From a virus (taxonomy: Duplodnaviria; Caudoviricetes): DNA of 64,000 nt. The notes beneath the pieces were generated by a model. The model was given only the letters and a program-made list of their open reading frames with translations, made no database searches and was not told the origin of the DNA. Position numbers and translations under genes: made by a program. Shown here piece by piece: positions 2,688 through 43,023 of this stretch. The stretch is from positions 96,001 to 160,000 of the IMG/VR virus record IMGVR_UViG_651703101_000001; one strand, 5' to 3'. Position 1 is the stretch's first letter; every line of letters begins with the position of its first letter.

Positions 2688-2708
2688 ATGTTTTGTGCTT
2701 TCTTTTAT

Positions 2709-3825: not shown

Positions 3826-3846
3826 GTCAATATGATTTTTTACTAT

Positions 3847-14553: not shown

Positions 14554-17067
14554 TTAGGCAAAAAATGATTCTAGGGTTACTTGTTTTTCGGTATGCCATC
14601 CGACGGCATCCATAATGGTCTGCAATGGGTCGATAAATCCCTTCTGATACATCATATCATAGTCAAGATACCGTGTCAACCCCAATTCTGTCGGTAGATC
14701 CTTAGGAAAGGCTATGATATTTTCGTGAGTCGGGTTTGGAATCTTAAGAAAGACAAACTTAACTTTATCACCGTCACGGATATTTGAATAACGGTTTGTA
14801 AGATTCTTCTCTTTGATGAGTTTATTGAATGAAATACTACCCCTTACGTGATACGGAGTAGATTTCTTGTAACCTATAGGTCCACCACAAATGAATTGGC
14901 TGATGTTATTTGCAGTTCTAGGAAATGCAATATCTTCAACCGGAAGGGATTTGAACTCTTTTCTCTTTTCATTAATGTAAGCAATGAGTTGATCTTCAGT
15001 TCCGTTCATGAAGATCTTCAGACAATCTGTAATATACTCACGACAGGGAACCGGAGTAGAGGATTTTACAGCCTCGATTCCCATCATTTTGAGTTTTGCC
15101 TCTTTATACCGAACACCTTCATTGTCCCATACATTCAGAATATAACGTTTCTTGGCACTCCAAATTCCCTTTTCTGCAATCGCTTCTCTCTTCATGACCA
15201 TGGTATTATCATAGGCATTTAGGTACTCTGCCAATTCATCATAAGATGAATCAATAAAGGGAATGAGTTTTGCTTCCGTAAAGGAATCCAACATTTCAAC
15301 AATTTTGTTAGTTGGAAGTGCACTACTATTCGGAATAGACTCGACTAAAGGACCAAGATTTAAGTATACAGAGTCTGTATCAACATAGGCAACATAGTCG
15401 AAACCAGTTGTTTTGAGAACTTTGTTAAGATACTCATTCAACTTTCTCTCGATCCAACGAATTGCAACTTGTCCAGTCACAGTAATTGCCTCAGCATTAT
15501 CCACACGATAATGACGGAAATACTGATTACCGATCGCCCCATAAAGAGAGTTCAATTGAATCTTACGAGCCATTTGGAAGTTACTCCACTTAGCAATCTC
15601 TTTACTTAATTGTTTGGTGGGATTTTGTTCATACTTTCTCTTGGCATCAAGCATGTTATTCTTGTACTGTACACGTTCATCATAGATCTTCTTCACAAGT
15701 TCAGGCATGAACCCGAGAATATCTTTACGGTACATACAACCATTCGCGGCGATGGTTAGGTCCGATGAGGCTGCCTGTAATTTATCTTTCTTCTGAATCA
15801 AGTCTTCCTTATTTACATGAATCTTGGAGTACAAAGTTTCTGGAGAAATATTCAGGAACCGAATCAAAGAAGGATATAGAGAGTTAAGGTCAAAGTTCAC
15901 AATCCAGTTATATGCACCTGGAATGGGTTCTTTAACATATGCACCCTCATACTGATCATTCTTTTCAGATCTTACAACCGGAGAAAGAACAATATTCTTT
16001 TCTTTCAAAAAGTTGTAGATGATGACATCCCAAAGTCTAACTTGACGGAAAGTATCTTCGTAGTTGCAATGAGAATCGTATGAAATCAACATGATCAATT
16101 CGATCAGTTTCATCTTTTCTTCTAACTTGTCAACAAGATTAACATCACGAATATTATACTCTGTGAACTTTTGCCAGTTTTTGGTGTAGAACTCTTGGAA
16201 TGTATCGTACTCGGAGTGATCTAGTTTCTTTTCACCAAGTTCAATTTCGGCGATTGCGTCCAGTTTATAGGAGGCTCTGTTGATAAATGCGAATTTCTTA
16301 TAGGCGGCAAGATAGTCTAGGACAGAAACACCAACAACATCAAATCGTTGTTCTTTTCTGTTATTAACCTCTACTTCTTTCTCCAATACAAACTTCCATG
16401 GAGATAGACTTTTTGCGTCAGTTTCTCCAAGAATTAGATTGATTCTGTTGTAGAGATAAGGAATATCAAAACCTTCAATATTCCATCCAGTTATAACTTC
16501 TGGCTCTTCTTTTCTCCACCAAGTAAGAAATTCATGTAATAGATGTTTTTCATTATTACACTTCAGGTAGTGAATTTTGGAATTATTAGTAATAAATTCA
16601 CCACAACCAAATGTATAGACATCTTTGGTTTGGAAATTCTTAAGAGAAATTAGAAGAATCTCCTGATCCGCAACACGAATATTCGGGAATCCATTTTCTG
16701 CAGTAGTCTCAATATCTAAAGACCAAAGTTTAATCTTTTCAGGTTCGTAATTTACGTCACCACGAAACTCTTCGGATAGAAACTGATACAGAATCTTTTC
16801 CATTCCGTATACAGTTACACCCTCAACATCTTTGTAACGTTGAAGAAAGTCTTTACAATCACGAATAGATCCTGGCTGAACTGGAGCCACAGGAATTCCA
16901 TCTAGAGTTCGATATTCTGTTGGTTTGTCTGTTTTTAGATAGAACGTTGGTTTGAAAGGATACTTGTTGTTGAAGTATCCTTCGGATTCGCTCCAGCCTC
17001 TACAGAGAACGTTGTTTCCATATAGAGTTGCGTAGGTGTAATGTCTCTTCAAAGTTGTCAGTTGCAA
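14554..17067 (-). CDS. gp43: family B DNA polymerase
   Basis: DIET exonuclease I, DLNSLYPS, KIQLNSLYG, YVDTDS; no intein or intron seen. Confidence 0.97.
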   Translation of the reverse strand: MQLTTLKRHYTYATLYGNNVLCRGWSESEGYFNNKYPFKPTFYLKTDKPTEYRTLDGIPVAPVQPGSIRDCKDFLQRYKDVEGVTVYGMEKILYQFLSEEFRGDVNYEPEKIKLWSLDIETTAENGFPNIRVADQEILLISLKNFQTKDVYTFGCGEFITNNSKIHYLKCNNEKHLLHEFLTWWRKEEPEVITGWNIEGFDIPYLYNRINLILGETDAKSLSPWKFVLEKEVEVNNRKEQRFDVVGVSVLDYLAAYKKFAFINRASYKLDAIAEIELGEKKLDHSEYDTFQEFYTKNWQKFTEYNIRDVNLVDKLEEKMKLIELIMLISYDSHCNYEDTFRQVRLWDVIIYNFLKEKNIVLSPVVRSEKNDQYEGAYVKEPIPGAYNWIVNFDLNSLYPSLIRFLNISPETLYSKIHVNKEDLIQKKDKLQAASSDLTIAANGCMYRKDILGFMPELVKKIYDERVQYKNNMLDAKRKYEQNPTKQLSKEIAKWSNFQMARKIQLNSLYGAIGNQYFRHYRVDNAEAITVTGQVAIRWIERKLNEYLNKVLKTTGFDYVAYVDTDSVYLNLGPLVESIPNSSALPTNKIVEMLDSFTEAKLIPFIDSSYDELAEYLNAYDNTMVMKREAIAEKGIWSAKKRYILNVWDNEGVRYKEAKLKMMGIEAVKSSTPVPCREYITDCLKIFMNGTEDQLIAYINEKRKEFKSLPVEDIAFPRTANNISQFICGGPIGYKKSTPYHVRGSISFNKLIKEKNLTNRYSNIRDGDKVKFVFLKIPNPTHENIIAFPKDLPTELGLTRYLDYDMMYQKGFIDPLQTIMDAVGWHTEKQVTLESFFA

Positions 17068-18314: not shown

Positions 18315-18719
18315 TTACCCTACAATTTTCTTTGATCCGATTTGATACTTGGGCTCAAGAATCCAATCTTTCTTCTCTTTAAAAGGAATGATTTTAATTT
18401 GTGAGACTGGTACCATTTCTTCAATTTTAGTTGAGTCTACGACTTGAACCAGACCCCAATCACTGAGGAGCTTAGTAATTCTATTTCTTCTCTGAATATC
18501 ATTTTCAGAAAGATCTGATGCCTTACCATCTAACAGGAATAGTTCCTTAAAAGAAACAATGTAATACTTTCCCTGTTTATGAAGAATGTGACAGGACTGA
18601 TAAAGTTTATTTTCAGTTCTTGATGCTACTCCAATTCTGGTTAGTGTTTCTCTAACCTTAAGAAAGTCATCGGGTTGATTTAATCTGACCTCAACTAGAT
18701 CATTGGCTGTCCATTCCAT
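18315..18719 (-). CDS. regA: translational repressor RegA
   Basis: DDFLKVRETLTRIGVAS...LYQSCHILHKQGKYYI. Confidence 0.96.
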   Translation of the reverse strand: MEWTANDLVEVRLNQPDDFLKVRETLTRIGVASRTENKLYQSCHILHKQGKYYIVSFKELFLLDGKASDLSENDIQRRNRITKLLSDWGLVQVVDSTKIEEMVPVSQIKIIPFKEKKDWILEPKYQIGSKKIVG

Positions 18720-29945: not shown

Positions 29946-31211
29946 ATGAAAATTCCTACCACTGACGAACTTCGTCAAACTATTTCTGATGAGTTTGGTA
30001 CTGATGTAACTACCAGGCAAATTCGTCTTTGGGCTGAAGCCAATGATCACACTCCTTCTTCGATTCTGAATCGTCTGAAAGACTATAAATCTGGTCATGG
30101 TAAGTATGACCTCTCAGTGAAAGAGGTGTTGGAACATAGTTTTGATCGACCAGCTGTCAATCCGGTTGGTGAAGTCGCGACTATTGTTCGTGATTATGAT
30201 TCTCTGGTCCCTGAAGCCGATCCGATGTTTGTTCCTTTCGGGAACTACTCTGATCTGGTCAAGATCATTCGTTCCAAAATCTTTTATCCCATTTTCATCA
30301 CTGGTCTTTCCGGCAATGGTAAGACTCACTCCATCTATCAGGCGTGTAATAAACTCAAACGTGATCTGATTCATTGTAGTATCACAATCGAAACTGACCA
30401 AGATGATCTTCTTGGTGGTTTCCGTCTTGTGGATGGTGAAACTGCATGGCATGACGGTCCTGTGATCGAGGCAATGAAACGTGGCGCCGTTCTTCTTCTT
30501 GACGAACTTGACCTTGCATCTAACAAGATTCTCTGTCTGCAATCTGTTCTTGAGGGTCGTGGAGTTTATCTGAAAAAGATTAACAAATGGGTGAATCCAG
30601 CCCCAGGATTCAATGTTATCGCGACTGCGAATACTAAGGGTAAAGGATCCGATAGTGGTAGGTTCATTGGTACTAATATTCTCAACGAAGCGTTTCTGGA
30701 ACGTTTCCCTGTAACTTTCGAGCAAGAATATCCTGCTATAGCCGTCGAGAAAAAGATTCTCACTCGCAATTTTGAGGCACTTAACTATACAAAGGATACC
30801 ACTAAGCTCGTAGAGAATCTGGTCAACTGGGCCGATGTGATTCGTAAAACCTACAATGATGGGGGCGTGGATGATCTTATCTCCACTCGTCGTCTGGTTA
30901 ATATCGTCAGGGCCTATGTGATTTGGGAAAATCCTCTTAAGGCGATTCAGTTCTGTACCAATCGTTTTGATGAAGATACTTCTAAGGTGTTTCGTGATCT
31001 TTATGAGAAAATTTCAGGTGACATTGTTTCTGTTGAAGATGCATCAGAAAGTTCATCTGAACTTTCTGAGGAAGGATATCCAAAGAGCCCCAATTATGGC
31101 GACATTTGGGAGAAAGTAAATGCTGATGGAGATAAGCAACTCTATATCTACTCACCTGCCTCTCCAGAACATAACCGTCCTGCCGATAGTTGGGTTCCCA
31201 TTAACAAATAA
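29946..31211 (+). CDS. cobS: CobS-like MoxR AAA+ ATPase
   Basis: GLSGNGKT, LLLDELD, ATANTKGKG, NEAFLERF, ISTRRL. Confidence 0.9.
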   Translation: MKIPTTDELRQTISDEFGTDVTTRQIRLWAEANDHTPSSILNRLKDYKSGHGKYDLSVKEVLEHSFDRPAVNPVGEVATIVRDYDSLVPEADPMFVPFGNYSDLVKIIRSKIFYPIFITGLSGNGKTHSIYQACNKLKRDLIHCSITIETDQDDLLGGFRLVDGETAWHDGPVIEAMKRGAVLLLDELDLASNKILCLQSVLEGRGVYLKKINKWVNPAPGFNVIATANTKGKGSDSGRFIGTNILNEAFLERFPVTFEQEYPAIAVEKKILTRNFEALNYTKDTTKLVENLVNWADVIRKTYNDGGVDDLISTRRLVNIVRAYVIWENPLKAIQFCTNRFDEDTSKVFRDLYEKISGDIVSVEDASESSSELSEEGYPKSPNYGDIWEKVNADGDKQLYIYSPASPEHNRPADSWVPINK

Positions 31212-31441
31212 ATAGTTGACAACCAAAGATCCCTGTGCACAGGGATCTATTATCTCAACTATTATGAATGCACCTAATTTTTATACCACAGAAGAAGATT
31301 TAAAAGAAATCACAGAACTTATTGAAGACACGGTTGAGCACCTTTGTGACGCAAATACTCTTTCGGGGGAATTCGTTTGGGGAGTTGTTGAGTGTTTGGC
31401 AGCTGCCAAACTAGCACAAATTCAAGGTCTTATCGATTGAT

Positions 31442-31506
31442 GTGCCAGTTGAAAGACTGGCACAAGCCCCTTGACTTCCTCGGTAAGATCGGTTATGCTA
31501 GCTAAG
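31442..31506 (+). promoter_or_regulatory. palindrome plus sigma70-type promoter
   Basis: GTGCCAGT-N6-ACTGGCAC, TTGACT-N17-TATGCT, then AGCTAAG; near-identical copy at 53102-53166. Confidence 0.85.
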
Positions 31507-31546
31507 TTCAAGAAATCAATATTTCATGACTAAATAAAAGAGACAT

Positions 31547-31618
31547 GCGATCGTAGTTCAGCGGTAGAACGCTATCCTTCCAAGTTAGATGTCGCTGGTT
31601 CAAATCCAGTCGGTCGCT
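31547..31618 (+). tRNA. tRNA-Gly(TCC)
   Basis: Cloverleaf, loop CTTCCAA, T loop TTCAAAT. Confidence 0.9.
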
Positions 31619-31622
31619 CTTT

Positions 31623-31697
31623 GCCCTCGTAGTTCAGCCCGGATAGAACACCGCACTTCTAATGCGTTTGTCGTAGGTTCAAATCCTACCGAGGGTG
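31623..31697 (+). tRNA. tRNA-Arg(TCT)
   Basis: Cloverleaf, loop CTTCTAA. Confidence 0.9.
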
Positions 31698-31716
31698 CTT
31701 AAATTCTTTATTTGTT

Positions 31717-31977
31717 ATGGATTTTCCTTCAGCCAAGTCTCTTAAAGATCATTTTAATAAGTCGGATTATAACAATAATCCTGACGAAGTAATGAAGGTC
31801 CTTCTGGAAAAGATTCAATCAGCCATAAAAGCTGGCCCAACGTATAACATCACTACGGCATATGCTCCTTTACCAACAAATCGAGAAACTATCCGATCTG
31901 TTAGACTTAAATTACAAGATCTAGGGTATAGGGTCTGGATCGATCACGATGTCAGGCACATTAGTGTTTCTTGGTGA
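31717..31977 (+). CDS. hypothetical protein
   Basis: 86-aa ORF between tRNAs and late promoters. Confidence 0.5.
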   Translation: MDFPSAKSLKDHFNKSDYNNNPDEVMKVLLEKIQSAIKAGPTYNITTAYAPLPTNRETIRSVRLKLQDLGYRVWIDHDVRHISVSW

Positions 31978-31985
31978 CGAAAAGT

Positions 31986-32036
31986 TACTAAATAAAACAG
32001 TCAAGCTTAAAAGCCTACTAAATAAACTCAGTCAAG
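31986..32036 (+). promoter_or_regulatory. tandem T4-type late promoters
   Basis: Two direct copies of TACTAAATAAA...CAGTCAAG. Confidence 0.6.
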
Positions 32037-32044
32037 ATAAAACA

Positions 32045-32191
32045 ATGACCAAACGTTTTCCTACTAATGAATTCTATCCGATCGCTGATAATAGCGATTG
32101 GGAGGTTCTTTGTGGGAAAATGTAAGGTGTAAAGCACTAAACAGCAAACCACAAAGAACCTCCCAATCGAAAGAAAGGGAGGTTCTTTTTT
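32045..32191 (+). promoter_or_regulatory. leader-peptide transcription attenuator
   Basis: 26-codon ORF 32045-32125; segment 32095-32115 perfectly complementary to 32149-32169, which can alternatively pair with 32177-32188 followed by a T-run. Confidence 0.75.
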
Positions 32192-32205
32192 ACTATGTGA
32201 TCGTT

Positions 32206-32409
32206 ATGAAATCTAAATTTGATCGTTCCAATGTTCGTTGGTTTAGGAATACCGGAATCGCCCGTCGTTATGATGAACAAGAAGACAAATGGTTTTATTA
32301 TCTTAAATCCATCGATGGATTTGATGAAGAAACTGATTACTTCCAGATTCTAGATTGGGGAGCTCATTTCCCCGCTGAAGTCGGAAACCTCCTATTTGAT
32401 AACTACTGA
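32206..32409 (+). CDS. hypothetical protein
   Basis: ATG immediately after the attenuator; abuts the next gene. Confidence 0.55.
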   Translation: MKSKFDRSNVRWFRNTGIARRYDEQEDKWFYYLKSIDGFDEETDYFQILDWGAHFPAEVGNLLFDNY

Positions 32410-32879
32410 TGAAATTCTATCTTGATTGTGAATTTAATAGTTTTGGTGGAGAACTCATCTCCCTGGCCCTAGTGTCAGAAGATGAAGAAATCCGATTCTA
32501 TGAAGTTCTTCCCTTCGATCACATGAAACTTCACCCATGGGTAGAAGAAAACGTGATTCCAGTTCTGTTTAGAAAACCAAAAAGTTGTAAGGAAAAATTT
32601 ACTCACAAGTTAGGTTGTTTTCTTCGGGAAAATGCAGTCAATGGTGAAATTACCATCGTTGCTGACTGGCCTGAAGATGTTAAATACTTCTGTGAATCTC
32701 TAATTATTGGCCCAGGTAGTGCTGTTGATATGCCGAATATCAACTTTACTATAGATAGAGTGAATCTAGTCAGTACGGTTGATTATTCCATGGTTCCTCA
32801 TAATGCTCTGGAAGATGCACTTGCATTGGCCAGAGGTGCCAGTCAAAGAACCGGCACACAAGGCCGACCAACCACCTGA
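32409..32879 (+). CDS. DEDDh 3'-5' exoribonuclease-like protein (Rv2179c-like)
   Basis: FYLDCEF...LISLALV...D...HNALEDA. Confidence 0.75.
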   Translation: MKFYLDCEFNSFGGELISLALVSEDEEIRFYEVLPFDHMKLHPWVEENVIPVLFRKPKSCKEKFTHKLGCFLRENAVNGEITIVADWPEDVKYFCESLIIGPGSAVDMPNINFTIDRVNLVSTVDYSMVPHNALEDALALARGASQRTGTQGRPTT

Positions 32880-32952
32880 TCTTGTGTTATGCTAGCTAAG
32901 TGGTCAAGAGGGACACCGATTCGCATTGGAGGCTCTCTTAACCACAACAAAT

Positions 32953-33025
32953 GGGTTCGTAGCAATGTGGCCAACTGCACCCGGCTTTTAACCGGAGTAT
33001 GTGGGTTCGATTCCCACCGGACCTA
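32953..33025 (+). tRNA. tRNA-Lys(TTT)
   Basis: Cloverleaf, loop CTTTTAA. Confidence 0.85.
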
Positions 33026-33164
33026 TTGACCGAAATCGTCATTAAACTACAAATCCTATGAAGTTTATGGTATCGGCCGGTACCTGTAATGGATTGGTAA
33101 GTCTGTTAGGACTATAATCTAATAGGTGTAGGGTCCCCTTCCTGCAGGAAAAGTAATCCACCAA

Positions 33165-33236
33165 CGGGGTGTGGCTCAGAGGTAGAGCGCTTGTTTTGGG
33201 AACAAGACGTCGCAGGTTCGATCCCTGCCATCCCGA
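33165..33236 (+). tRNA. tRNA-Pro(TGG)
   Basis: Cloverleaf, loop TTTGGGA. Confidence 0.9.
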
Positions 33237-33534
33237 TTAGGATGTTCTGACTAGGGATAGTTAGGACACCAACTGACCTCGATATCCCATCGAGACTCAC
33301 TTGGCAAATCCTATACTCTCATCATAAGGTATGATTCCTTTATGATGGTTCGTTTATACCGATCCATTGTATTTGAATTCAGGTTCGACTCCTGAATGAG
33401 TGTTTTCCTCTTAACGGATCCTATAAAGAGGGAAAGGTGAATGTAGACATTGCAAGGTCCACGCTAACCTAGAACAAAACATCATGGTTCGATTCCTAAG
33501 CTCTGGTGAGTGTGATGCGAGTTCTAAATTTTCT

Positions 33535-33619
33535 GGGTGTATGGCAACTATTGGTATGTTGCGGTTGTCTGTAAAACAACTGTCCCTGACTATTGGAGGT
33601 TCGATTCCTCTTGCGCCCA
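33535..33619 (+). tRNA. tRNA-Tyr(GTA)
   Basis: Loop CTGTAAA, long variable arm. Confidence 0.85.
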
Positions 33620-33675
33620 CTTAGTCCTAAGCATGACTCTAAACTGTTTAACCTTTTGTTATATAATAAGCTCAA

Positions 33676-34203
33676 ATGGCAAAGTTCAAAGTAGGCGACC
33701 ATGTTAGGCGCGGCCGCGGAACTAAACCCGCAGTTGTGACTTCCGTAGGTTACTGTATCTACTGTCGTTATCTTGAATCTCGTAGCACTTTCAGCGCCTA
33801 CGAATCCGATCTCGTCCTTCTAGACGAATATGAAGTAAACTCTCTTAATACTATGAACTCCACTCTCTACACTTTCAAAGAAAATGATGTCGATGTCTAT
33901 GCATCCGTCATTGGTAAGACTGAAGCCGGTCTTCTTGTCCTTGAAGTCCGCGGCGGTGGTGGTATCTTCACCAAGTCACCATCTGATGTGACCGAAGTGG
34001 TTCCTTACACCGTTTCTATTAACTTCAATGGAATCGACTCTCACTATGAAGTCCCTAAGGGTCTTCTCGCCAAAGGTGATGTTCTTCTTCGTGATGATGG
34101 CAAGTTCGGTACTGTTGTAGAACTGGACACTAAGAAGAAGAATGCCAATTCTAAACTGGTTGCCCGTCGTGTTCTGACTGAAGAACTCAGCATCGGCTCC
34201 TGA
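33676..34203 (+). CDS. hypothetical beta-rich protein
   Basis: KFKVGDHV start; 175-aa ORF. Confidence 0.6.
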   Translation: MAKFKVGDHVRRGRGTKPAVVTSVGYCIYCRYLESRSTFSAYESDLVLLDEYEVNSLNTMNSTLYTFKENDVDVYASVIGKTEAGLLVLEVRGGGGIFTKSPSDVTEVVPYTVSINFNGIDSHYEVPKGLLAKGDVLLRDDGKFGTVVELDTKKKNANSKLVARRVLTEELSIGS

Positions 34204-34518
34204 ATTTCTAGGTTAAATAGTAAGTAAAGTTTGGTAAGGAATAGAACTATCTAGCACTGCCAAATACCTAGAATTGGAAGTGGTTGGACAATCAGCTGTG
34301 CACAAGTGATTCAGGTTCGATTCCTGACACTTCCCTGGTCCTGAGTAAAGACCGTAAACTGCTCTAGTGGGGAACTACTATTCAGGCTCTTGCCGGAGTA
34401 ACTGATCCTGGCTCGAAATGGACGGCAATCCATTCTCCCAGATAGTGTCCTATCAGTACCGCCAACAGCGGGCTGATAAATAAGTCTGGTGGGTCGGACT
34501 ATAAAATTCCCACCGCCC

Positions 34519-34590
34519 GCGAATGTAATTCAGTGGTAGAATGTCTGCTTGCCAAGTAGATTGTCGTCGGTTCAAATCCGATCATTCGCT
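34519..34590 (+). tRNA. tRNA-Gly(GCC)
   Basis: Cloverleaf, loop TTGCCAA. Confidence 0.9.
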
Positions 34591-34593
34591 CTT

Positions 34594-34659
34594 GTGACAG
34601 TTGAAAGACTGGCACACACCCGGTTGACCCCCAAAGGAAAATCGGTTATCTTAGCTAAG
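34594..34659 (+). promoter_or_regulatory. palindrome plus sigma70-type promoter
   Basis: GTGACAGT-N6-ACTGGCAC, TTGACC-N17-TATCTT, AGCTAAG. Confidence 0.8.
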
Positions 34660-34856
34660 TGGTCGAGAGGGGAACGGTTGAAGCCCGATTCCCAGACTCC
34701 ACTAACTAAGGACCTAATGGCCCAACCAAAGTTAAAGTTTCTGTGGTAAAGTCGTGAAACCTAGCAAGAGATAATCTCAAATGCGAACCGCCAAAAGTCT
34801 GGAGGCGTTAAAATGAAGGACCTCTTTCCTCGGCATGAAATGAAACTGCCCACAAT

Positions 34857-34930
34857 GGTCCTGTAGCATAGTGGTCTAATGCACTACCCTGTCACGGTAG
34901 GTTACGTCGGTTCAAATCCGATCAGGATCG
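34857..34930 (+). tRNA. tRNA-Asp(GTC)
   Basis: Cloverleaf, loop CTGTCAC. Confidence 0.9.
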
Positions 34931-34984
34931 CTTAGAATAGGTTTCCGTAACCTATTCGCGATGAGACTTAATTCTCATCACTTT

Positions 34985-35055
34985 GCCTAGTTCGTCTAAT
35001 GGTAAGACAAGAGCTTCCAAACCTCTTGACGTGGGTTCGATTCCTACACTGGGTG
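34985..35055 (+). tRNA. tRNA-Trp(CCA)
   Basis: Cloverleaf, loop TTCCAAA. Confidence 0.88.
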
Positions 35056-35083
35056 TTGTCTGCATAGACATTAAACAAGCAAA

Positions 35084-35712
35084 TTGGGATTGTCTCTCCC
35101 CTATAACTGAAAAGGTTATAGAAAATCAGAATCCAATCTACGGGGTCTGAGCTTCTTCGGAAGTATAAGAGAACGAAGGATGGAGAATACGGGTGCATGC
35201 CCTTCCGACTCCACTATGCCTTTATTGGTTAAGACTCCTTGGCGGGAGAAGAAACCATAAGTAACATTTAAGAGTGAGTGCCTCGCCAAAGGTAAATGCT
35301 TCTTATCTGATTGGGGATTACAGTAGTTGTCCCAAAAGTAGTACGGAAATCTCTTAATGGAAATAAGAATCGCCGTGAAAGTAGCGTATGTCGTAGCCTT
35401 CGGGTGGCATATTTGACAAACTGCGATTGGTGAAATCGAAGCCTCTAAGGTCATTTTGGAAACGAAATGATTTCTGTCGAAAGACCTTCTGTTGGTTATG
35501 TTCACGGCATAACAGATGGAAAGATGTGCGAAACTAGAGTCTGATCAATTCAGGGTAGCAAGCATAGAAGGTGGATCCAATTAACCGATTTGCTAGTTAG
35601 AACAAACTAGAGAGGAAGAATCTAAACTCGGATACGACGAGGTGTGCGACTACTGAAAATATCATCAGTAGCATAGATTCAGTGGGACTAGACGACACTA
35701 AAGCCCACAACC
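35084..35712 (+). ncRNA. large ornate structured ncRNA (GOLLD/ROOL-class candidate)
   Basis: ~630 nt without a sense ORF between two tRNAs, dense with hairpins capped by UUCG or GAAA loops. Confidence 0.6.
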
Positions 35713-35715
35713 CAA

Positions 35716-35787
35716 TGGCATGTAGTTCAGCGGTAGAACGCTTGGCTGTTAACCAAGTTGTCGCAGGTTCGATCCCTGCCGTGCCAG
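35716..35787 (+). tRNA. tRNA-Asn(GTT)
   Basis: Cloverleaf, loop CTGTTAA. Confidence 0.92.
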
Positions 35788-35865
35788 TTGGAAGGAAACT
35801 CGGTCTTAGAGACTTCTATTCAATGAAGCCACTCACTGGTAATCAATCCAGTTCCTTCCCTAATT

Positions 35866-35941
35866 GCTCCAGTAGACAAATTGGTAAAGTCGCCTCTCTT
35901 TCAAAGAGGACATTTTGCGAGTTCGAGGCTCGTCTGGAGTT
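35866..35941 (+). tRNA. tRNA-Glu(TTC)
   Basis: Cloverleaf, loop CTTTCAA. Confidence 0.85.
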
Positions 35942-35969
35942 CTTGTCCGAAATGACATTAAACTAATAT

Positions 35970-36040
35970 ATCGTGTTAGCTCAGTGGTAGAGCAGCTTTC
36001 GATAGGAAGCAGACCCAGGTTCGATTCCGGCCACGACCCA
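35970..36040 (+). ncRNA. aberrant tRNA-like RNA (no 7-nt anticodon loop)
   Basis: Intact D arm (TAGCTCAGTGGTAGAGC) and GGTTCGATTCC; anticodon arm folds as GCTTTC-GATA-GGAAGC; ends in CCA. Confidence 0.6.
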
Positions 36041-36042
36041 AT

Positions 36043-36115
36043 ACAGTCATCGACTAGCGGTCTAGGTCGCTACCCTCTCAAGGTGGAAACACCAGTTCAA
36101 ATCTGGTTGGCTGTA
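36043..36115 (+). tRNA. tRNA-Glu(CTC)
   Basis: Cloverleaf, loop CTCTCAA. Confidence 0.85.
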
Positions 36116-36568
36116 TTTGCTATAGAAAGTTCCTGTAACCCAACCTAACCTTAGCGGGGGGTTACCTTCGGGAGAATCCCCGCTGCCACAATTACTTTCC
36201 AGCAAACACTAAAAATAAGTCATAGGAAATTCCTTTGAATACCCAACTTTTGGTCGTGGGTTCGAGCCCCACCATCATAACTTCGGTTATGGTGTAGCTC
36301 AGTTGGTAGAGCGAAAGTCATTCTATTTCCCGACTAAAACTAAAATCTTGTCAAAAGAAGTTCCTGTTTTATACACTTTTAATGTAGCCACTATACTTCT
36401 CGACAACCCTTAAATAAGGCACATGAGGTTCCTTTCAAACCCTTTGTCTGAAACACAAACTCATTACCTCTCGCCTTAAAACCAAAAAGATAAAAGAAGT
36501 TCCTCTTTTCTGTAGGTTCGACTCCTACAGAGCTCATCGAGCTCTGACGGTTAATTTTACTTCTCATC
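36116..36568 (+). ncRNA. array of five Y-RNA-like stem-loop RNAs (36116-36206, 36218-36335, 36348-36406, 36416-36477, 36489-36568)
   Basis: Each unit: outer stem, AHA opposite a single C, 6-bp stem, invariant TCCT, variable insert; stems covary between units. Confidence 0.8.
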
Positions 36569-36579
36569 CCCAATTTATT

Positions 36580-38421
36580 ATGACTATCGATAAGAAATAC
36601 GCCTCACTCAGACTTTTCAACGCAGTTGTCGTTGGAGAGAGAACAAACACTTCGTTGGACTATATGTTCAACTCAGCACGTGGTATTGTCATTGCCCCTT
36701 CTGCAATGCACCGTGTTAATGATATTAAGAAATACGTTAATGACCGTCAGCTTTCGGGTGAAGAGCTCAACGCTACTTTCTATTCCAACTGGGAAAAGGT
36801 AAGAACTGTCTCCCTGGAACAAAGAATGCGTGATCAAATCACCCACTATTTTAGCACCTATGGTCTGGAGGCACTGGGTCTTGATTCTCCTGATTATATC
36901 TATCTGCCAAACCCTGGTGTGAAGGACATTCCAGATAACCTGCAAGTTCTTGTCATCAAAGGTGTCCGTAAGGAAGATCTCCAAGCAGCATGCTTTAAGA
37001 TGCTTGCAAGTGGTGTTGCTCTCAAGCAAGAAACCATTGAAGATATTCTTTATGTTCTAGAGTATGACTGTGGTTATAAGTTCAACGGTACCGAAGTCAT
37101 CAAGAACCGTGAAGCACAAGTGCTTGTCTATGACAAGACTGGTGTATTCCCACGGGATTCCGAATCCGTACTTCGTTACCTTGTCTACAAGGCCACCGGT
37201 GAAACTCTGGTCATCAAGAACAAGTATATGATTGACAAGATCCGTTGTTCTGGTTATGAACTGCCTATGCAACTGAACGTTCGTGAGCTTGCCAAAACCT
37301 TCAACCGTTACAAGCCACTATGGCTAGCATTCAAGAAGGCAAATCGTAAAAACGCCAATACCATCAACCGGATTGCGAAGTTGTCCAAGACACTTCACAC
37401 TCCAATGAAGGTTAATGTTCTTACAAATATCACCTCTCTTCTTCCTAGTGTCGAAGATGTCAAGAAGGCATGTGAGAATGCAAACGGTTTCCAAGTTGCC
37501 CGGGCACTGAATGTAGTTCGTCTGTATAAGGCCAACAACACTTCCCGTATGTATAGTGTACGGAATGGTAAACTGTTCGTGAAGGCCGCAGAGGGTAAGA
37601 CCTTCAATACCAACAAGTACGAAGTTCCTCTGATTAGTGCACTGCAAGGTAAGACTTCCGAGAAGACTTACTATATCCCTGATGAACTGGACTATGCACT
37701 ACCTGTGTCTGAAAAGATGTTCTCTGGTAATGTGCCAACCGGTTCCTCTATCCTGGCTCCAATCGGTGCCGAGCATCTGCTGGTGGGTATCTACTGGGAG
37801 GATGAGGGTTACGGTTCCCGTACTGACCTTGACCTCAGTGCAGTCAACTTGAAGCAAAAGATTGGCTGGAACTCTGCATGGAGAACTGGTGGCTCTGAAC
37901 TGATGTACTCTGGTGATGTTACTTCCGGTCACGGTGGTGCTGCAGAATACATGTACATGAATAATGGACTGAAGGATAGCTACATGCTGACCGTCAATCT
38001 TTATTCCGGTACCGTAGGTAAGCCATTCAAGGTGATTGTTGGTTATGGTTCACTCAAGAGTGGTGGCTATAACAGTAACAGTAATAGTAACTATGTCATC
38101 GATCCTAACAAAGTCATCTTCCAAGCTGACTGTGTAATGAGAAAGAGACAAATGATGATTGGTACCATCGAACCAGTCCCACAGATTGGTGCAGATCCTA
38201 CCGTCAAGTTCACTCTACTTGATCGGGCTGTACAAAACAGTCGGGTCACTCCTTCTGGTCAGAATACCGAAACCCTCGCACTTGATTATATGTTGAGTGC
38301 AAACGCCACCTCACTTCGTCTTCGTGACTTTGTGAAAACTGTGGATAGTCCTCTACTCGCTGATGTAGACCTGAGCATGCAATCCCTCACCAGGGATAGT
38401 GTACTCTCCATCTTTGAGTGA
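36580..38421 (+). CDS. 613-aa protein: helical (TROVE/ROT-like, inferred) region plus C-terminal TerD-like domain
   Basis: C-terminal GIYW...DLDLSAV...GWN...YSGDVTS...AAEY matches TerD-type acidic motifs; N-terminal QITHYFSTYG and basic helical segments. Confidence 0.6.
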   Translation: MTIDKKYASLRLFNAVVVGERTNTSLDYMFNSARGIVIAPSAMHRVNDIKKYVNDRQLSGEELNATFYSNWEKVRTVSLEQRMRDQITHYFSTYGLEALGLDSPDYIYLPNPGVKDIPDNLQVLVIKGVRKEDLQAACFKMLASGVALKQETIEDILYVLEYDCGYKFNGTEVIKNREAQVLVYDKTGVFPRDSESVLRYLVYKATGETLVIKNKYMIDKIRCSGYELPMQLNVRELAKTFNRYKPLWLAFKKANRKNANTINRIAKLSKTLHTPMKVNVLTNITSLLPSVEDVKKACENANGFQVARALNVVRLYKANNTSRMYSVRNGKLFVKAAEGKTFNTNKYEVPLISALQGKTSEKTYYIPDELDYALPVSEKMFSGNVPTGSSILAPIGAEHLLVGIYWEDEGYGSRTDLDLSAVNLKQKIGWNSAWRTGGSELMYSGDVTSGHGGAAEYMYMNNGLKDSYMLTVNLYSGTVGKPFKVIVGYGSLKSGGYNSNSNSNYVIDPNKVIFQADCVMRKRQMMIGTIEPVPQIGADPTVKFTLLDRAVQNSRVTPSGQNTETLALDYMLSANATSLRLRDFVKTVDSPLLADVDLSMQSLTRDSVLSIFE

Positions 38422-38424
38422 GTT

Positions 38425-38484
38425 GTCCATGGCAAAGGAAGTTCCTTTTATACAATTTGGATGTCTTTACTTCCCGCCATGGAC
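38425..38484 (+). ncRNA. sixth Y-RNA-like stem-loop RNA
   Basis: GTCCATGGC-AAA-GGAAGT-TCCT...T-ACTTCC-C-GCCATGGAC, 3 nt after the gene stop. Confidence 0.8.
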
Positions 38485-38673
38485 TAACTAAATAGATGTA
38501 CCAGTTGAGGAACTGGCACACCAGGCATCCCACCGGGGTCAATCGGTGTTATGCTAGCTAAGTGGTCAAGAGAGACCGGCCCGAGATATCGGTAACCGAC
38601 TGTTTCTTGACCACAACATGACCTCCTAAAAGATAACAGTCCATGGTTTTGCGTAGGGTGACACCCTACATCA

Positions 38674-38748
38674 CCGGGTGTAGCTCAGTTTGGCCAGAGC
38701 ATTCCGTTTGGGGCGGAGGGGTCAGAGGTTCAAATCCTCTCACTCGGA
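38674..38748 (+). tRNA. tRNA-Pro(TGG), second copy
   Basis: Cloverleaf, loop TTTGGGG. Confidence 0.85.
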
Positions 38749-38811
38749 TTGATAGTAAGGCATTACTATCAAAGGACTGTCAGTGGTCCTTTAAGACAAG
38801 ATGGTTTAGAT

Positions 38812-38884
38812 TCTGCATTGGGCGAGTCTGGAACTCCGCCGGGCCTGGCGCCCGGAGACGTTGGTTCAAATCCAACATGCAGGT
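38812..38884 (+). ncRNA. atypical tRNA-like RNA (Pro TGG-like, C33)
   Basis: TCTGCAT/ATGCAGG acceptor, CCGGG-CCTGGCG-CCCGG arm, GTTGG-TTCAAAT-CCAAC T arm. Confidence 0.6.
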
Positions 38885-38943
38885 CGTGAACAGTGATTAT
38901 GCCTGATCATGTCGTTCTAATCTGAACCTAGTCACTGACATAT

Positions 38944-39014
38944 GGAGATATAGCTCAACGGCAGAGCAACCGGCCGATTACCGGATGATGAGAGTTCGAC
39001 TCTTTCTATCTCTA
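38944..39014 (+). tRNA. atypical tRNA-Ile(GAT)-like
   Basis: Cloverleaf with unusual loop CCGATTA. Confidence 0.65.
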
Positions 39015-39054
39015 CTTGTGGGTTTTGTCCACCACGTTAAAAACGGGATGTTAT

Positions 39055-39128
39055 AGGAACATAGCATAGTGGCCTAATGCACACGGCTGATAACCGTGAG
39101 ATCGTCAGTTCAAATCTGACTGTTCCTA
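39055..39128 (+). tRNA. tRNA-Ile(GAT)
   Basis: Cloverleaf, loop CTGATAA. Confidence 0.9.
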
Positions 39129-39200
39129 TTGGGAGGCAATTCTAGATTATCCCAACCGTGTGCACCCTACCGGATCTGAATAGATAAAGTGGGTCCAATC

Positions 39201-39274
39201 GGGAACTTAGCTCAGTTGCGTAGAGCACTTGGTTGAAGCCCAAGGTGTCGTCGGTTCGATTCCGTCAGTTCCCA
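39201..39274 (+). tRNA. tRNA-Phe(GAA)
   Basis: Cloverleaf, loop TTGAAGC. Confidence 0.88.
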
Positions 39275-39312
39275 TTTGAGGAAGTCATACCTCATTAAAA
39301 ACATGACACAAT

Positions 39313-39385
39313 GGGGTCTTAGCACAACTGGTAGTGCAATTGCTTTGCAAGCAATAGGTTAGGGGTTCGAGTCCCCTAGATTCCA
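39313..39385 (+). tRNA. tRNA-Ala(TGC)
   Basis: Cloverleaf, loop TTTGCAA, G3-U70. Confidence 0.9.
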
Positions 39386-39440
39386 TTTTCCGGCTTCAAT
39401 GAGTAAACCGGAGGTTGTTAGTTTCCCATAAACTATCATC

Positions 39441-39609
39441 AAACATAAGTGAGTACCCAAACTGGTAAAGGGGGGTGTGGATTCAGCCAATACGGATGGG
39501 ATTGTGAATACTAAAAACAATCTCCTAGCTCATGGTCGAAACTACCTTTCAAGTAACAGCTAGACGTAATCTTGATATGTGGGTTCGACTCCCACCTCAG
39601 ACTGTGTTT
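39441..39609 (+). ncRNA. tRNA-like RNA with ~100-nt structured insert
   Basis: D arm CCC-AAACTGGTAAA-GGG and T arm GTGGG-TTCGACT-CCCAC enclosing two extra hairpins. Confidence 0.6.
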
Positions 39610-39761
39610 ACCCGATTCCTGTAAGTTTGCTAGTGTGTAGCAGAGAATCGTAGCAAGAACTAGAATTGTGATACCTACAATCGCCCACCTCCTTGAGGCA
39701 GAGTTCATAAGTCGTCAGTTCGTAACTCGTAAGTTAACTGTATCGAACGTAGGTTCATCAT

Positions 39762-39833
39762 AGGTCCATAACTCAGCGGCAGAGTGCTACCTCGACACGG
39801 TAGAAGTCGTCAGTTCAATCCTGACTGGACCTA
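39762..39833 (+). tRNA. tRNA-Val(GAC)
   Basis: Cloverleaf, loop TCGACAC. Confidence 0.88.
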
Positions 39834-39858
39834 TTCTCTTTTGTTTATCTTCTTTATA

Positions 39859-40236
39859 ATGAGACGAAAACTTGTAGAGTTTGTGGCATCCCTTCTACAT
39901 GTAGAAGTAACATTCCCTCCAAAGAAAGAGGCATGGGTCGAACCTAAGAATCGTGAGTGTAGATTTGCAAAAGAAGTCATGCATAGTGGAGAAGTATTCT
40001 GGTACGTGGAAGAATACTTCAAATCACGAAGTGAATGTGAATTAAATGTCCCTTCTGTCGCTCATGAATTGTATGAAAAATGTCAAAGTAGAACTAACGG
40101 GAAGTTAGATGATCGTGTTTGGTTTTGGGCCAGACATCCCAAAAGATGCAATTCAATGGAAGATGCAATTGAGTATCTAAATAACAAAATCAAGAAAAAA
40201 GTTCCATTGGAAGTTTCATACATCAAAGTCGAATAA
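39859..40236 (+). CDS. hypothetical protein
   Basis: ATG (MRRKLV) downstream of tRNA-Val. Confidence 0.55.
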   Translation: MRRKLVEFVASLLHVEVTFPPKKEAWVEPKNRECRFAKEVMHSGEVFWYVEEYFKSRSECELNVPSVAHELYEKCQSRTNGKLDDRVWFWARHPKRCNSMEDAIEYLNNKIKKKVPLEVSYIKVE

Positions 40237-40451
40237 TTTATGTTATTTCAACCAAAATACATTAATCCACTTGAAAAACTTTCCGCTGGTTGGTGGTGGG
40301 TCGGTCAAACCATTGAAGAATGGTTCCGAACTATGATGAGTGAAGATGGTGAATTTTTTAACTATCTTAATTCTGATTATGTTGGTTATCTGGAAGAAAT
40401 GAATAGAATGTAATTCTGATAGTCCTCAATATGACTATAAACTGTTGACAT

Positions 40452-40575
40452 ATTCCTTAGTTAAATATAGGAACAAAAACCATGTTCGATTCATGGGATG
40501 ATTGGTATCTGGGCGGTTCGATTCCGTTTTAAGTTATGGTAACTAGGAAGGTTCAAATCCTTCTAACTAGGGAAT
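40452..40575 (+). ncRNA. RNA with three T-arm hairpins in a 12-bp closing stem
   Basis: CATG-TTCGATT-CATG, GGCGG-TTCGATT-CCGTT and GAAGG-TTCAAAT-CCTTC inside ATTCCTTAGTTA/TAACTAGGGAAT. Confidence 0.65.
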
Positions 40576-40578
40576 TTT

Positions 40579-40663
40579 GGAAGTGTGGCAGAGCGGCTAA
40601 TTGCAGTTGTTTGCTAAACAACCGGGCTAATAACCCACACAGGTTCAAATCCTGTCACTTCCG
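40579..40663 (+). tRNA. tRNA-Ser(GCT)
   Basis: Loop TTGCTAA, long variable arm, G73. Confidence 0.88.
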
Positions 40664-40667
40664 CTTT

Positions 40668-40759
40668 GGTGAGTTGTCCGAGAGGCTTATGGTGCGATCT
40701 TGGAAAGATCGTGTGTGAGATTGTATCAAGCACCAGAGGTTCAAATCCTCTACTCACCG
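40668..40759 (+). tRNA. tRNA-Ser(GGA)
   Basis: Loop TTGGAAA, long variable arm, G73. Confidence 0.88.
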
Positions 40760-40778
40760 TTTTAACAATTAAATTATT

Positions 40779-43023
40779 ATGTCAAATAAAGAATGTAATA
40801 ATTGCAGACATGTGATTCTATCATCCAGTAAATGGGACAACAGGCACCACAATAGATGTAGAAAAAATACTTGGTACAATCCAGAAGCTTGTAATTTGAT
40901 TCTAAATCATCCTGATATTTACCATAGTTGTAGCCATGAGAATTATATTCATTGGGGCCCCAAACTCAATCTATGGGAACGAATTAGGAGTAGAAAATGA
41001 TTTTAGAGTCTATGACTCTAGGCACTGGGATCATACAAATAATTGTTGGTTTTAACACTAAAGGACAGTTGAAGAACTGTCCCAAAGGACCCCTCCGGGG
41101 TCCTTTTCTGTGTTACTCTGTAAGAGTAACTAAGGGATTAAGGTCGTGATCATGAGTGTTCCTTCCGCAGGACCAAATTATGTCACTTGGCGAGAATTCT
41201 TCATTAGGTCTCCGTTTGTGACACAAGAAGAAATTGATCAGGTTCAGGAACTAGGTTGGGCTCACGTGGCTAACCTCTACCGACAACATTCTGCTGGCAT
41301 TCAAGCACAACTTCAAGACAATGTATACTGATGACTGAAAAAGACTTACTACTTAGACTAGAACGTATTTGTCAAACATATATTGATATTAATGAAAACT
41401 TTTGGGAAGAAAATGATCTTAGTCGCGACGAGGCGGCTGACTGTTTGGTTTACGTCTCAAGTCTGATTAGTGAACCACAATTCGACCGTGAAGATAAAGA
41501 CCAATGGGATGAATTGAAGAGAATTCTCTATCAACGATTGGAGAATAAATCCCCCCAAACAATGTTTGAACTTTCCTTGGGACTTCCTGAGGATTGTGGC
41601 ACAGTTGTTCTGGATGAAATGGTCTATGGTCGTATGTATCAAGATGATTGTTATCGTATTGGATTGAGGAAATGAACTATTACATTCTATGTGTTGACAA
41701 GGATGACGGAGGACTTGAAATCCTCACTGATGAACAAGGAATGACCAACTGGATCTTCTATAGTCTCACAGAACTGGAAGAAGGTGTGAAAGAGGCGATC
41801 ACGATTCTCAAAGATCGACTGACCTTCGGTCAGTCTTATTCTGATGTCGATCATAAGTTGACTGTGTTGGAGTCTAAGTCTTGTATCAACGGACTTATCA
41901 TCGAAAACTATGTCACTGAGGTTCGATTGAAGATGGAACAGGAAAAGGAAGAAAAGGAAAGACGGCGTAGACTTTATTATCAACTTCGTGCGGAATTCGG
42001 GTGATGGCTAAACTCAATGCAGGTGTACTTAGGGACCAACTCCATCAACGGAATTGGGAACTTCATTGTGCCAAACAACAAATCAAGTTCCAAGAGCTTC
42101 TTCGTCGAATTGAAAACTTGACAGAGTGTAACTTTGAAGAGTTTATTGATCGGGAAGTTGTCGGATTCATTCTTCGGAATGATGGATTCTACTTTCCAGT
42201 CGCGGAAAGTATCACTCAATCCGGTCAAGGTATTGGTAAATTCGCGAGCCAATGGGGATGACTATTACTGACGTTTCAAATCGACTCTTTACCATTCTGA
42301 ACAAATTTCGTCGTACTGATGATTTTGGTGAAGTGTTGGGGAATACTGTTCATGGGGATCTTATGGAATTGATTGGACAGTATGGTAAATCCCAATACAA
42401 ACTGGGATATAAAGAAGGTTGTGAAGATTCCGACCCTACACCTTGGACAAAATAATGACTATTAACAATTTGGATGATGCCGCAAGGGCAACAAATGATC
42501 TTCTTAAATACCATCGCGATTGTGACATGATGGGAGTCGATATCTCCCATCGTCTTTTTAAAGATCTTATAGAAATTATGAAAAAGTACGGAGAATCCCA
42601 GTATAGAGTTGGGTATAAATCCGGTTGTGATGATACAATGGTGTAATTATGCAACTGACTATTAATTGTAACCCTTACACGGGTTTATATGTGTGGTCTA
42701 TCTATGATGGACCTGACGGAGTTGATGAAGGTCATGGCACTGCACGTACTCTTAGTGAGGCCTATGAGCAGGTTATCATCTGGAGGAATAATAACGCCAA
42801 ACAGTATCTATAATAACCCATGCGTAAATGTAAAGTCTGTAATGGCCCTATGAGTGTAGGAGTTGCCTTATCAGATAAAGAGGGGCACTTTTACACTGAA
42901 ATCGGAATCGCCCCCATCGACCAAACATTAACCATAGAATCTATGAGACTTTCAGAAGTCTATAAGTGTGTCGATTGTGGTCATAGTGAACCTTTGGTGG
43001 CCAGAGAATTTTTCTATAAATAG
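40779..43023 (+). other. run of small hypothetical early ORFs
   Basis: Overlapping 60-120 aa ORFs, most of them behind the palindrome promoter at 41063-41082. Confidence 0.55.

Follow-up and report, generated by a model that had tools for sequence, protein, structure and literature searches.

In Ro60–Y RNA and YrlA systems, one or more small structured RNAs lie beside a single protein gene on the same strand. These RNAs combine a conserved bulged-stem handle with a variable module, which is sometimes a permuted tRNA mimic, and such systems are linked with RtcB-type repair genes and occur in phages. The repair operon of Salmonella holds Ro60 (Rsr) and Y RNA genes together with rtcB and rtcA. 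A locus of similar layout was found in IMG/VR virus record IMGVR_UViG_651703101_000001 (Duplodnaviria; Caudoviricetes), which comprises 178,563 bp and is rated 100% complete by CheckV. Positions 96,001 to 160,000 of this record, a stretch of 64,000 nucleotides, are referred to as the window. In the window, the gene for a 613-amino acid protein is flanked by six bulged-hairpin RNA units (U1 to U6), of which U2 carries a permuted tRNA-like module. A preliminary description of the window proposed that the units are Y RNA-like and that the protein is a Ro-like ring in which a TerD domain replaces the vWA domain.

The pair is interpreted here, with somewhat more confidence than doubt, as a non-homologous, Ro–Y-like RNA–protein module that would be linked to tRNA or RNA damage control. 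This interpretation was chosen because Ro60–Y RNA is the closest functional analogue, yet the tests for membership of that family were negative for the TROVE profile, for vWA, and for three of the four RNA features. Unlike Ro60, the window protein has no detectable TROVE relationship and carries a TerD end in place of vWA. The RNA handle differs as well, with an A-N-A bulge, a 6-bp stem, UCCU, and a bulged C. It lacks GNCGAAN0-1G, a 5'-strand motif proposed for Ro60 recognition (PMC4201824), which is absent from all six window units at the sequence level. In addition, most family units are hairpins of about 60 nt without a tRNA-like domain, and up to seven occur per locus. In the literature, no description was found of the hairpin motif or of a helical-TerD protein with partner RNAs; a mention in RNA-repair genomics surveys or their supplements is possible. 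A 2026 preprint on bacterial tRNA mimics deals with other motifs. The one paper found that treats TROVE, TerD, and RtcB together was not seen to report a fusion of TROVE/ROT repeats to TerD, which the preliminary description had listed as an established architecture.

A bulged-hairpin family confined to one gene family

The units and the gene are arranged as follows, with bit scores and expectation values (E) from the covariance model R1 described below.

36116-36206, + strand: U1; outer stem TTTGCT/AGCAAA, bulge ATA, inner stem GAAAGT/ACTTTC; R1 30.7 bits, E 1.1e-5
36218-36335, + strand: U2; outer stem AGTC/GACT, bulge ATA, inner stem GGAAAT/ATTTCC; missed by R1
36348-36406, + strand: U3; outer stem TTGTC/GACAA, bulge AAA, inner stem AGAAGT/ACTTCT; R1 38.5 bits
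36416-36477, + strand: U4; outer stem AAGGC/GCCTT, bulge ACA, inner stem TGAGGT/ACCTCT with one T-T mismatch; R1 38.2 bits
36489-36568, + strand: U5; outer stem GAT/ATC, bulge AAA, inner stem AGAAGT/ACTTCT; R1 18.4 bits, E 0.028
36580-38421, + strand: gene for the 613-amino acid protein (open reading frame)
About residues 1-370 of the protein, + strand: mostly helical N-terminal domain (AlphaFold2 model)
37753-38292, + strand, residues 392-571: TerD-fold beta-sandwich (Foldseek, VIA)
After the TerD fold of the protein: C-terminal helices (AlphaFold2 model)
38425-38484, + strand: U6; 9-bp outer stem GTCCATGGC/GCCATGGAC, bulge AAA, inner stem GGAAGT/ACTTCC; R1 53 bits, E 6.9e-12

Direct reading of the sequence confirmed every element that the preliminary description had listed for the six units, including their positions and the start of U6 3 nt past the stop codon (38419-38421). 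All six follow one plan, in which an outer stem leads to a 3-nt A-H-A bulge, a 6-bp stem ending in T, TCCT, an insert, T, the complementary 6-mer, a single C, and the second strand of the outer stem. The inserts measure 59 nt in U1, 90 in U2, 29 in U3, 32 in U4, 54 in U5, and 22 in U6. The U1 insert contains G+C-rich hairpins, and that of U5 contains a T-arm-like hairpin, detected by a script search, and a second hairpin. Minimum-free-energy folds reproduced the architecture in U1, U3, U4, U5, and U6, while U2 folds otherwise, and the fold z-scores of the six units range from -2.4 to -5.3 (U6, -5.25). U6 was ruled out as an intrinsic terminator, as TAACTAAATAG comes next, without a T-run. No Shine-Dalgarno-like sequence precedes the ATG at 36580, and U5 ends 11 nt 5' of this start codon; therefore, initiation may depend on, or be controlled by, the U5 hairpin.

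The plain pattern [6-bp stem]TCCT..T[stem]C matched the + strand of the 64-kb window 11 times, five of these matches being array units, and the - strand 4 times. For comparison, 80 phage loci encoding relatives of the 613-amino acid protein were fetched, several of which are near-duplicates. A simple motif pattern gave 217 matches on the gene strand of these loci versus 68 on the opposite strand, and the gene-strand matches cluster just upstream of the gene. Alignment A3 was assembled from 79 short units of the phage loci together with U3 and U6, and the covariance model R1 was built from relatives in other genomes plus the same two window units. Because the training units of R1 were picked by pattern, the conservation figures lean towards the search pattern, and long-insert units such as U2 are under-detected.

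The inner stem was selected for pairing, and its covariation is therefore not independent evidence. No such selection was applied to the outer stem, in which the four positions closest to the bulge are paired in 96-100% of the sequences and show 2 to 6 pair types each. In both paired cells and covariation score, the complete structure beat 500 of 500 shuffles and all slid controls, and RNAalifold independently predicted both helices. These findings agree with the stem covariation noticed earlier in the window.

R1 recovered five of the six window units, U2 being missed, and gave one weak extra match. On the whole 178,563-bp record, matches at E <= 0.001 occurred at the array locus only. Among the 80 phage loci (583 kb), 186 matches at E <= 0.01 were found in 73 loci, every one of them adjoining the gene and sharing its strand. 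The bacterial loci gave 54 matches spread over 21 of 21, again with the strand of the gene and immediately upstream of it. When five whole bacterial genomes of 4.1-8.3 Mb were searched, 12 of 12 matches lay at the homologue locus among the 150 candidates scored per genome. The co-occurrence suggested as a check in the preliminary description thus exists, and the motif is present beside homologues in phages and bacteria alike. Among the seven phage loci without a match at E <= 0.01, four have little or no sequence upstream of the gene. A repeat or mobile-element origin was ruled out because the motif was found only beside this gene family, both in the phage record and in the five bacterial genomes. 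The weak extra match in the window (18531-18578; 19.6 bits, E 0.013) combines TTCCT with a paired stem, lacks the A-N-A bulge, lies 18 kb from the gene, and is probably due to chance. Rfam contained no family for the hairpin units in window positions 31000-41000 and 36100-36600, in eight phage loci, or in the loci of phages S-CBWM1 and phiM12, the exceptions being sub-threshold YrlA and tRNA matches to some inserts.

The anatomy of the family was counted in 150 model matches (A6). The 81 training sequences of R1 are among the possible matches, so the invariance is partly built in. The first bulge position is A in 150 of 150 (A9) and the third is A in 147 (A11). The inner stem has 6 bp, with an insertion in a single row, and its closing pairs are G-C in 143 matches and U-A in all 150. 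UCCU follows in 150 of 150 and is usually continued by AUAAA, a U precedes the 3' strand of the inner stem in 139 of 139, and the bulged C is present in 144. The outer-stem pair next to the bulge is C-G in 131 and U-A in 19. The apical part has a median length of 25 nt, and the 5'-strand consensus of the family is GGCAAAG. The fixed spacing between two invariant single-stranded patches has the look of a binding site measured by a protein. Loci carry one to seven units, and the seven in phage locus L042 all differ in sequence. In 66 loci with gene coordinates, units lie only upstream of the gene in 56, only downstream in 8, and on both sides in 2, including the window. The gap between unit and start codon has a median of 20 nt and is at most 34 nt in 43 of 58 cases, and downstream units usually begin within about 35 nt of the stop codon.

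The inserts are the variable part of these RNAs, and the window stands out from the family by its long ones. The Rfam YrlA alignment shows the U2 insert as a permuted tRNA-like module, with the T-arm first, then a closed acceptor-like hairpin, and the D-arm last. The YrlA model RF02553 matched U2 at 36222-36336 over its full length (model positions 1-114) with 35.9 bits, below the gathering score of 69. The other five units gave no match to any Y RNA family in Rfam at E <= 10, and a tRNA-like domain is absent from U1, U3, U4, and U6 and partial in U5. The proposed likeness to Y RNAs therefore stands for the modular design of handle and insert and for the tRNA-like domain order of U2. It does not extend to the sub-threshold score of U2, to the five unmatched units, or to the missing Ro60 motif.

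Similar modules occur elsewhere. Phage locus L017 has two units with permuted tRNA-like inserts similar to that of U2. In another phage locus (L056, 1897-2015), a complete tRNA-Ile(GAU), its CCA encoded (Rfam 59.6 bits; ARAGORN 1920-1996), lies inside a family unit, and excision of this tRNA would leave the handle halves base-paired. Sinorhizobium phage phiM12 and its relatives also have an unannotated RNA (L184 2460-2600, corresponding to NC_027204 about 101640-101780) that is 80% identical to the U2 insert over about 71 nt and matches YrlA with 35.2 bits. The phiM12 RNA has a long stem with 15 terminal base pairs, unlike the family handle, and lacks UCCU. It lies 1.3 kb upstream of a DUF2828-vWA 'RNA-binding protein' gene, adjoins a macro-domain gene, and is probably an undescribed canonical Y RNA of the phage group phiM12, phiM7, phiM19, and phiN3. 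Near-identical tRNA-like modules are thus found on different handles beside different proteins, which indicates a modular logic as in Y RNAs.

The helical-TerD protein

The full-length AlphaFold2 model, built with a 39-sequence alignment, has a mean predicted local distance difference test score (pLDDT) of 87.9 and a predicted template modelling score (pTM) of 0.87. Residues 392-571 have the TerD fold, as the preliminary description had proposed. Foldseek gave a probability of 1.00 for 3ibz, 2kxt, 2qng, and 2qz7, and VIA gave Z 10.1 against 2qz7_B (142 residues, root-mean-square deviation (rmsd) 3.0) and Z 9.0 against 2kxt. This part shares its beta-sandwich with known TerD proteins (Klebsiella TerD 2kxt; Streptomyces SCO6318 2qz7 and 3ibz). 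Unlike these proteins, the window protein has its TerD domain fused to a 370-residue helical domain. Pfam TerD (PF02342) did not match the window protein at E <= 1 and reached 1 of 39 family members with E 0.028, because the domain is too divergent at the sequence level. Clostridial neurotoxin rows in the full-length Foldseek search were dismissed as spurious, with low probability and an rmsd of about 25-33 A.

The family itself is large and nearly nameless. Pfam (E <= 1), PHROGs, NCBIfam, and PADLOC gave no match for the window protein, and a profile search of solved-structure sequences returned nothing below E 0.4. At E <= 0.001, a word-indexed search that scored 8000 candidates yielded 360 relatives, and 1321 representatives of 50%-identity clusters came from an exhaustive search. 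Where names are given, they are almost always 'hypothetical protein'. Ninety-seven relatives are encoded in viral contigs, and the ESM Atlas contains only unnamed, mostly viral clusters, the nearest of them reported as 50-91% viral. One cyanobacterial member (P0031) resembles NF041916, the MXAN_6230/SCO0854 RING family, its residues 220-445 aligning with profile positions 375-622 (E 1.2e-7). This match runs from the latter half of the helical domain into the beginning of TerD. In contrast to true members of NF041916, P0031 scores 30 against a cut-off of 600 bits and has no RING by Pfam, and the window protein has no match to the profile.

The N-terminal domain was compared with Ro60 in several ways. 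Folded alone, the first 390 residues gave a mostly helical model with pLDDT 81.5. Against the Protein Data Bank (PDB), Foldseek gave a best E of 0.22 and no match covering the domain, and the best hit of a wide VIA search (Z 6.9) was limited to residues 278-364. Ro60 was not among the rows listed by either search. When the 1000 best Foldseek chains were realigned, Ro60 9l5y_B reached Z 5.0 (60 residues, rmsd 2.7) and 2nvo reached Z 4.9 (69 residues, rmsd 3.4). These alignments cover only residues 277-377, where the final helices ahead of the C-terminal domain show a local alignment with those at the end of Ro60, and their scores tie with 14-3-3 and other generic helical repeats. In BFVD, matches to the domain at E <= 0.001 were only uncharacterised or 'tellurium resistant like' phage proteins, regarded as distant relatives, and a TROVE protein matched with E 0.24 and probability 0.23. 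Pfam TROVE (PF05731) gave no match for the window protein at E <= 1, and hhalign against an 11-sequence TROVE alignment from Bacteroidota genomes gave a probability of 0.8% for the N-terminal domain and 0.1% for the full length. Pfam likewise gave no VWA match, the C-terminal domain having the TerD fold. No TROVE gene was matched across the 178,563-bp phage record, while control genomes were matched. The Ro-like ring suggested earlier is therefore unsupported.

Basic or polar residues predominate among the invariant positions of the helical domain (R199, K213, R243, K245, K252, N263, H273, R328, N329, and K379). The invariant residues of the TerD domain are D416, D418, D446, and E456, which may correspond to the acidic metal-binding motifs of TerD. 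TerD domains are predicted to recognise specialised nucleotide derivatives (PMC7159879), and therefore the domain may bind the end of an RNA or a nucleotide signal here.

Neighbourhoods in phages and bacteria

The RNA–protein pair is present in many phages, in Bacteroidota, and in cyanobacteria. In bacteria it occurs within RNA-repair operons, in keeping with the earlier suggestion of an RNA-repair function. In Chryseobacterium sp. (L088), the order is a WYL-WCX regulator and HopJ on the opposite strand, RtcB, three RNA units, the homologue, RlaP, an open reading frame of no assigned function, and an R2K ATP-grasp gene. In Marivirga (L159), the kinase-phosphatase-ligase Pnkp and DUF5677 precede two units, the homologue, a further DUF5677, and RlaP. 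A tblastn search of 80 bacterial loci placed RtcB no more than 6 kb away in 73 and RlaP in 65; nearly all 80 loci come from one genus and so do not count as independent. A HopJ-family gene is found in 71 of the 80 loci and a WYL-WCX regulator in 68, both divergent to the RtcB–RNA–homologue–RlaP cluster; in L088 they occupy 3799-4131 and 2462-3481, respectively, and they are also seen in L081. Among the phages, a scan of 150 of 247 neighbouring open reading frames found a repair-type protein among the two nearest reading frames on either side in 7 of 42 loci. These neighbours are an RNA ligase (3 loci), RtcB, Tpt1 with a phosphoesterase, HAD_SAK_1, and a PNK-like AAA_33. The genes of ter operons were absent from the neighbourhoods examined.

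Synechococcus phage S-CBWM1 encodes a homologue with 40% identity, gp22, within a tRNA array. One unit lies just upstream of gp22, and a second lies 2.5 kb upstream amid tRNAs; the two are located at NC_048106 about 13144-13204 and 15613-15671. Just downstream of gp22-gp23 in this phage, two features annotated as 'tRNA-pseudo' (L183 5183-5359) match Rfam tRNA with 53.7 and 45.5 bits.

The window has a similar setting. Its proteins include a T4-type clamp and clamp-loader, DNA ligase, and HNH endonucleases, and ARAGORN identified 34 tRNA genes, all on the + strand. The RNA units and the 613-amino acid gene are situated within this tRNA array, next to the following gene.

36042-36116, + strand: tRNA-Glu(CUC) (ARAGORN; Rfam tRNA 54.7 bits)

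The last base of this tRNA is the first base of U1, so that the hairpins form an extension of the phage tRNA array. A tRNA-like sequence that separates the two tRNA-Glu genes (35970-36038) scores 26 bits against the 29-bit Rfam tRNA threshold, was not called by ARAGORN, and may be a degenerate or unusual tRNA. On the other side, the 189-nt gap from U6 to the next tRNA-Pro (38485-38673) folds into four stable hairpins (-66.2 kcal/mol, z -4.18). Its fold energy was equalled by 0 of 200 shuffles, it has no Rfam or tRNA assignment, and it could be a further structured RNA. Four wastewater runs labelled RNA-Seq, probably DNA, yielded short low-depth contigs of a close relative of the window phage; the high read depth at tRNA-like parts in these runs comes from tRNAs of other organisms.

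A putative RNA–protein particle and its rivals

The recurrence of the same pair in many phages and in bacterial RNA-repair operons gives it the look of a new RNA–protein particle, and the data support a dedicated RNA–protein pair. The locus would be a conserved module in which a helical-TerD protein is accompanied by one to seven bulged-hairpin RNAs on the same strand. The invariant part of the RNA is a putative protein-binding handle. It would consist of the top outer pair (usually C-G), the A-N-A bulge opposite the bulged C, and an exact 6-bp stem closed by G-C and U-A, with UCCU(AUAAA) on its 5' side and U on its 3' side. The apical insert would be the exchangeable part, usually about 25 A/U-rich nt, in some units a permuted YrlA-type tRNA mimic, and in one a whole tRNA. 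The gene and the RNAs probably share a transcript, which in the window would extend the phage tRNA array, and the RNAs would be cut to stable small RNAs before being loaded onto the protein. The particle could then act as a scaffold that offers RNA or tRNA-like modules to repair enzymes or to enzymes acting on tRNA; alternatively, it may soak up tRNA-cleaving nucleases. The ligand of its TerD domain may be nucleotide-like or the end of an RNA, and a unit adjoining the start codon may let the protein throttle its own translation.

A bolder version of the non-homologous interpretation is put forward tentatively, with a chance that falls somewhat short of even. The pair might represent an unrecognised ribonucleoprotein class that arose independently of Ro–Y RNA, with a helical-TerD scaffold, arrays of about 60-nt hairpins, and swappable apical cargo (tRNA mimics and real tRNAs). 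Phages and bacteria might use such particles to present, protect, or decoy tRNA-like substrates in RNA-damage conflicts.

Several observations weigh against a Ro–Y-like module in RNA damage control. Repair genes were found in only one of six bacterial loci outside Chryseobacterium, that of Marivirga, and repair neighbours occur in a minority of the phage loci. The window phage itself has no RtcB, RlaP, or Rnl2-type ligase in searches for these three. A canonical TROVE protein is encoded elsewhere in three of five bacterial genomes with a homologue; because the two coexist, the homologue does not simply replace Ro60. On the RNA side, most inserts are short A/U-rich loops without an obvious effector, and of 138 units defined strictly, 6 have a T-arm-like insert. 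R1 found nothing in L021 and L077, two phage loci with full flanks, and in L011 its single weak match lies 1.8 kb away. The predominance of units upstream of the gene, close to its start codon, fits a purely cis-acting leader as well.

The strongest alternative is that the hairpins are cis-acting parts of the mRNA, such as leader operators and trailer stabilisers, which are bound by their own protein and are not free small RNAs. This explanation is considered unlikely. In phage and bacterial operators, such as the ribosomal-protein leaders or lambda N with boxB beside the N gene, a hairpin lies next to the gene of the binding protein. The present family is similar in having a conserved-loop hairpin just upstream of the gene of its presumed binder. 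All 240 of 240 R1 matches are on the gene's strand, 56 of 66 loci have upstream units only, with the short gaps given above, and U5 stands before an ATG that has no obvious Shine-Dalgarno sequence. Unlike such operators, the family has arrays of up to seven units, downstream units, and tRNA-like inserts, and it is spread over phages and several bacterial phyla. The eight loci with downstream units only, the two with units on both sides, and the seven differently sequenced units of one locus speak against a cis-acting role as the whole explanation, as do the abutment of U1 on a tRNA 3' end and the second S-CBWM1 unit 2.5 kb away amid a tRNA array. The inserts that are tRNA mimics or a real tRNA-Ile point in the same direction and suggest stable, processed RNAs. 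A cis-acting role and a role as free small RNAs are compatible.

According to a second alternative, which is considered rather improbable, the RNAs serve as decoys or sponges for a nuclease of the host or of a rival, or for a defence system that targets tRNAs; the protein would be an accessory and the whole an anti-defence device. The family is common in phages, as seen in the mostly viral Atlas clusters and the viral-contig relatives, units occur in multiple copies, and both the window array and the S-CBWM1 copy lie amid phage tRNA genes. The lack of RtcB, RlaP, and an Rnl2-type ligase in the window phage would also fit a decoy. In contrast, the chromosomal copies of Chryseobacterium are placed in RtcB–RlaP operons beside a WYL regulator, which suggests a repair function in the cell. 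A handle conserved so strictly speaks for a single dedicated partner, namely the adjacent protein, and the window protein has no PADLOC family match.

The weakest alternative, a true but very divergent Ro60/TROVE–Y RNA system with an unrecognisable TROVE ring and TerD in the place of vWA, could draw on the YrlA match of U2, on the local alignment with the last Ro60 helices, on a consensus (GGCAAAG) one position off GNCGAAN0-1G, and on a position in RtcB operons like that of Ro60 and Y RNA in Salmonella, but it is very improbable given the negative hhalign and Pfam TROVE results, the Ro60 Z scores of 4.9-5.0 over 60-69 of 390 residues at the level of unrelated helical repeats, the absence of a domain-covering match in VIA or Foldseek, the five units without a YrlA match, the six without the Ro-binding motif, and the TROVE proteins that coexist in the same genomes.

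The hairpins constitute a new structured-RNA family, absent from Rfam 15 in the stretches searched. This RNA motif is paired with a large protein family, with 1321 cluster representatives, that has no Pfam, PHROG, or NCBIfam name, and it gives the unnamed proteins a testable predicted function in RNA binding. The pair can be tested at the bench because phage S-CBWM1 and cultured Chryseobacterium strains carry it. Operons with RtcB, RlaP, and Pnkp tie the pair to RNA repair, a field in which the scaffold roles of Ro60 and Y RNA remain unclear. If the non-homologous interpretation is true, a second, unrelated scaffold would follow the same modular logic and share tRNA-like modules with Y RNAs, and this design would have evolved more than once. 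In that case, the 60-nt hairpins would offer a simpler system for learning what such particles do.

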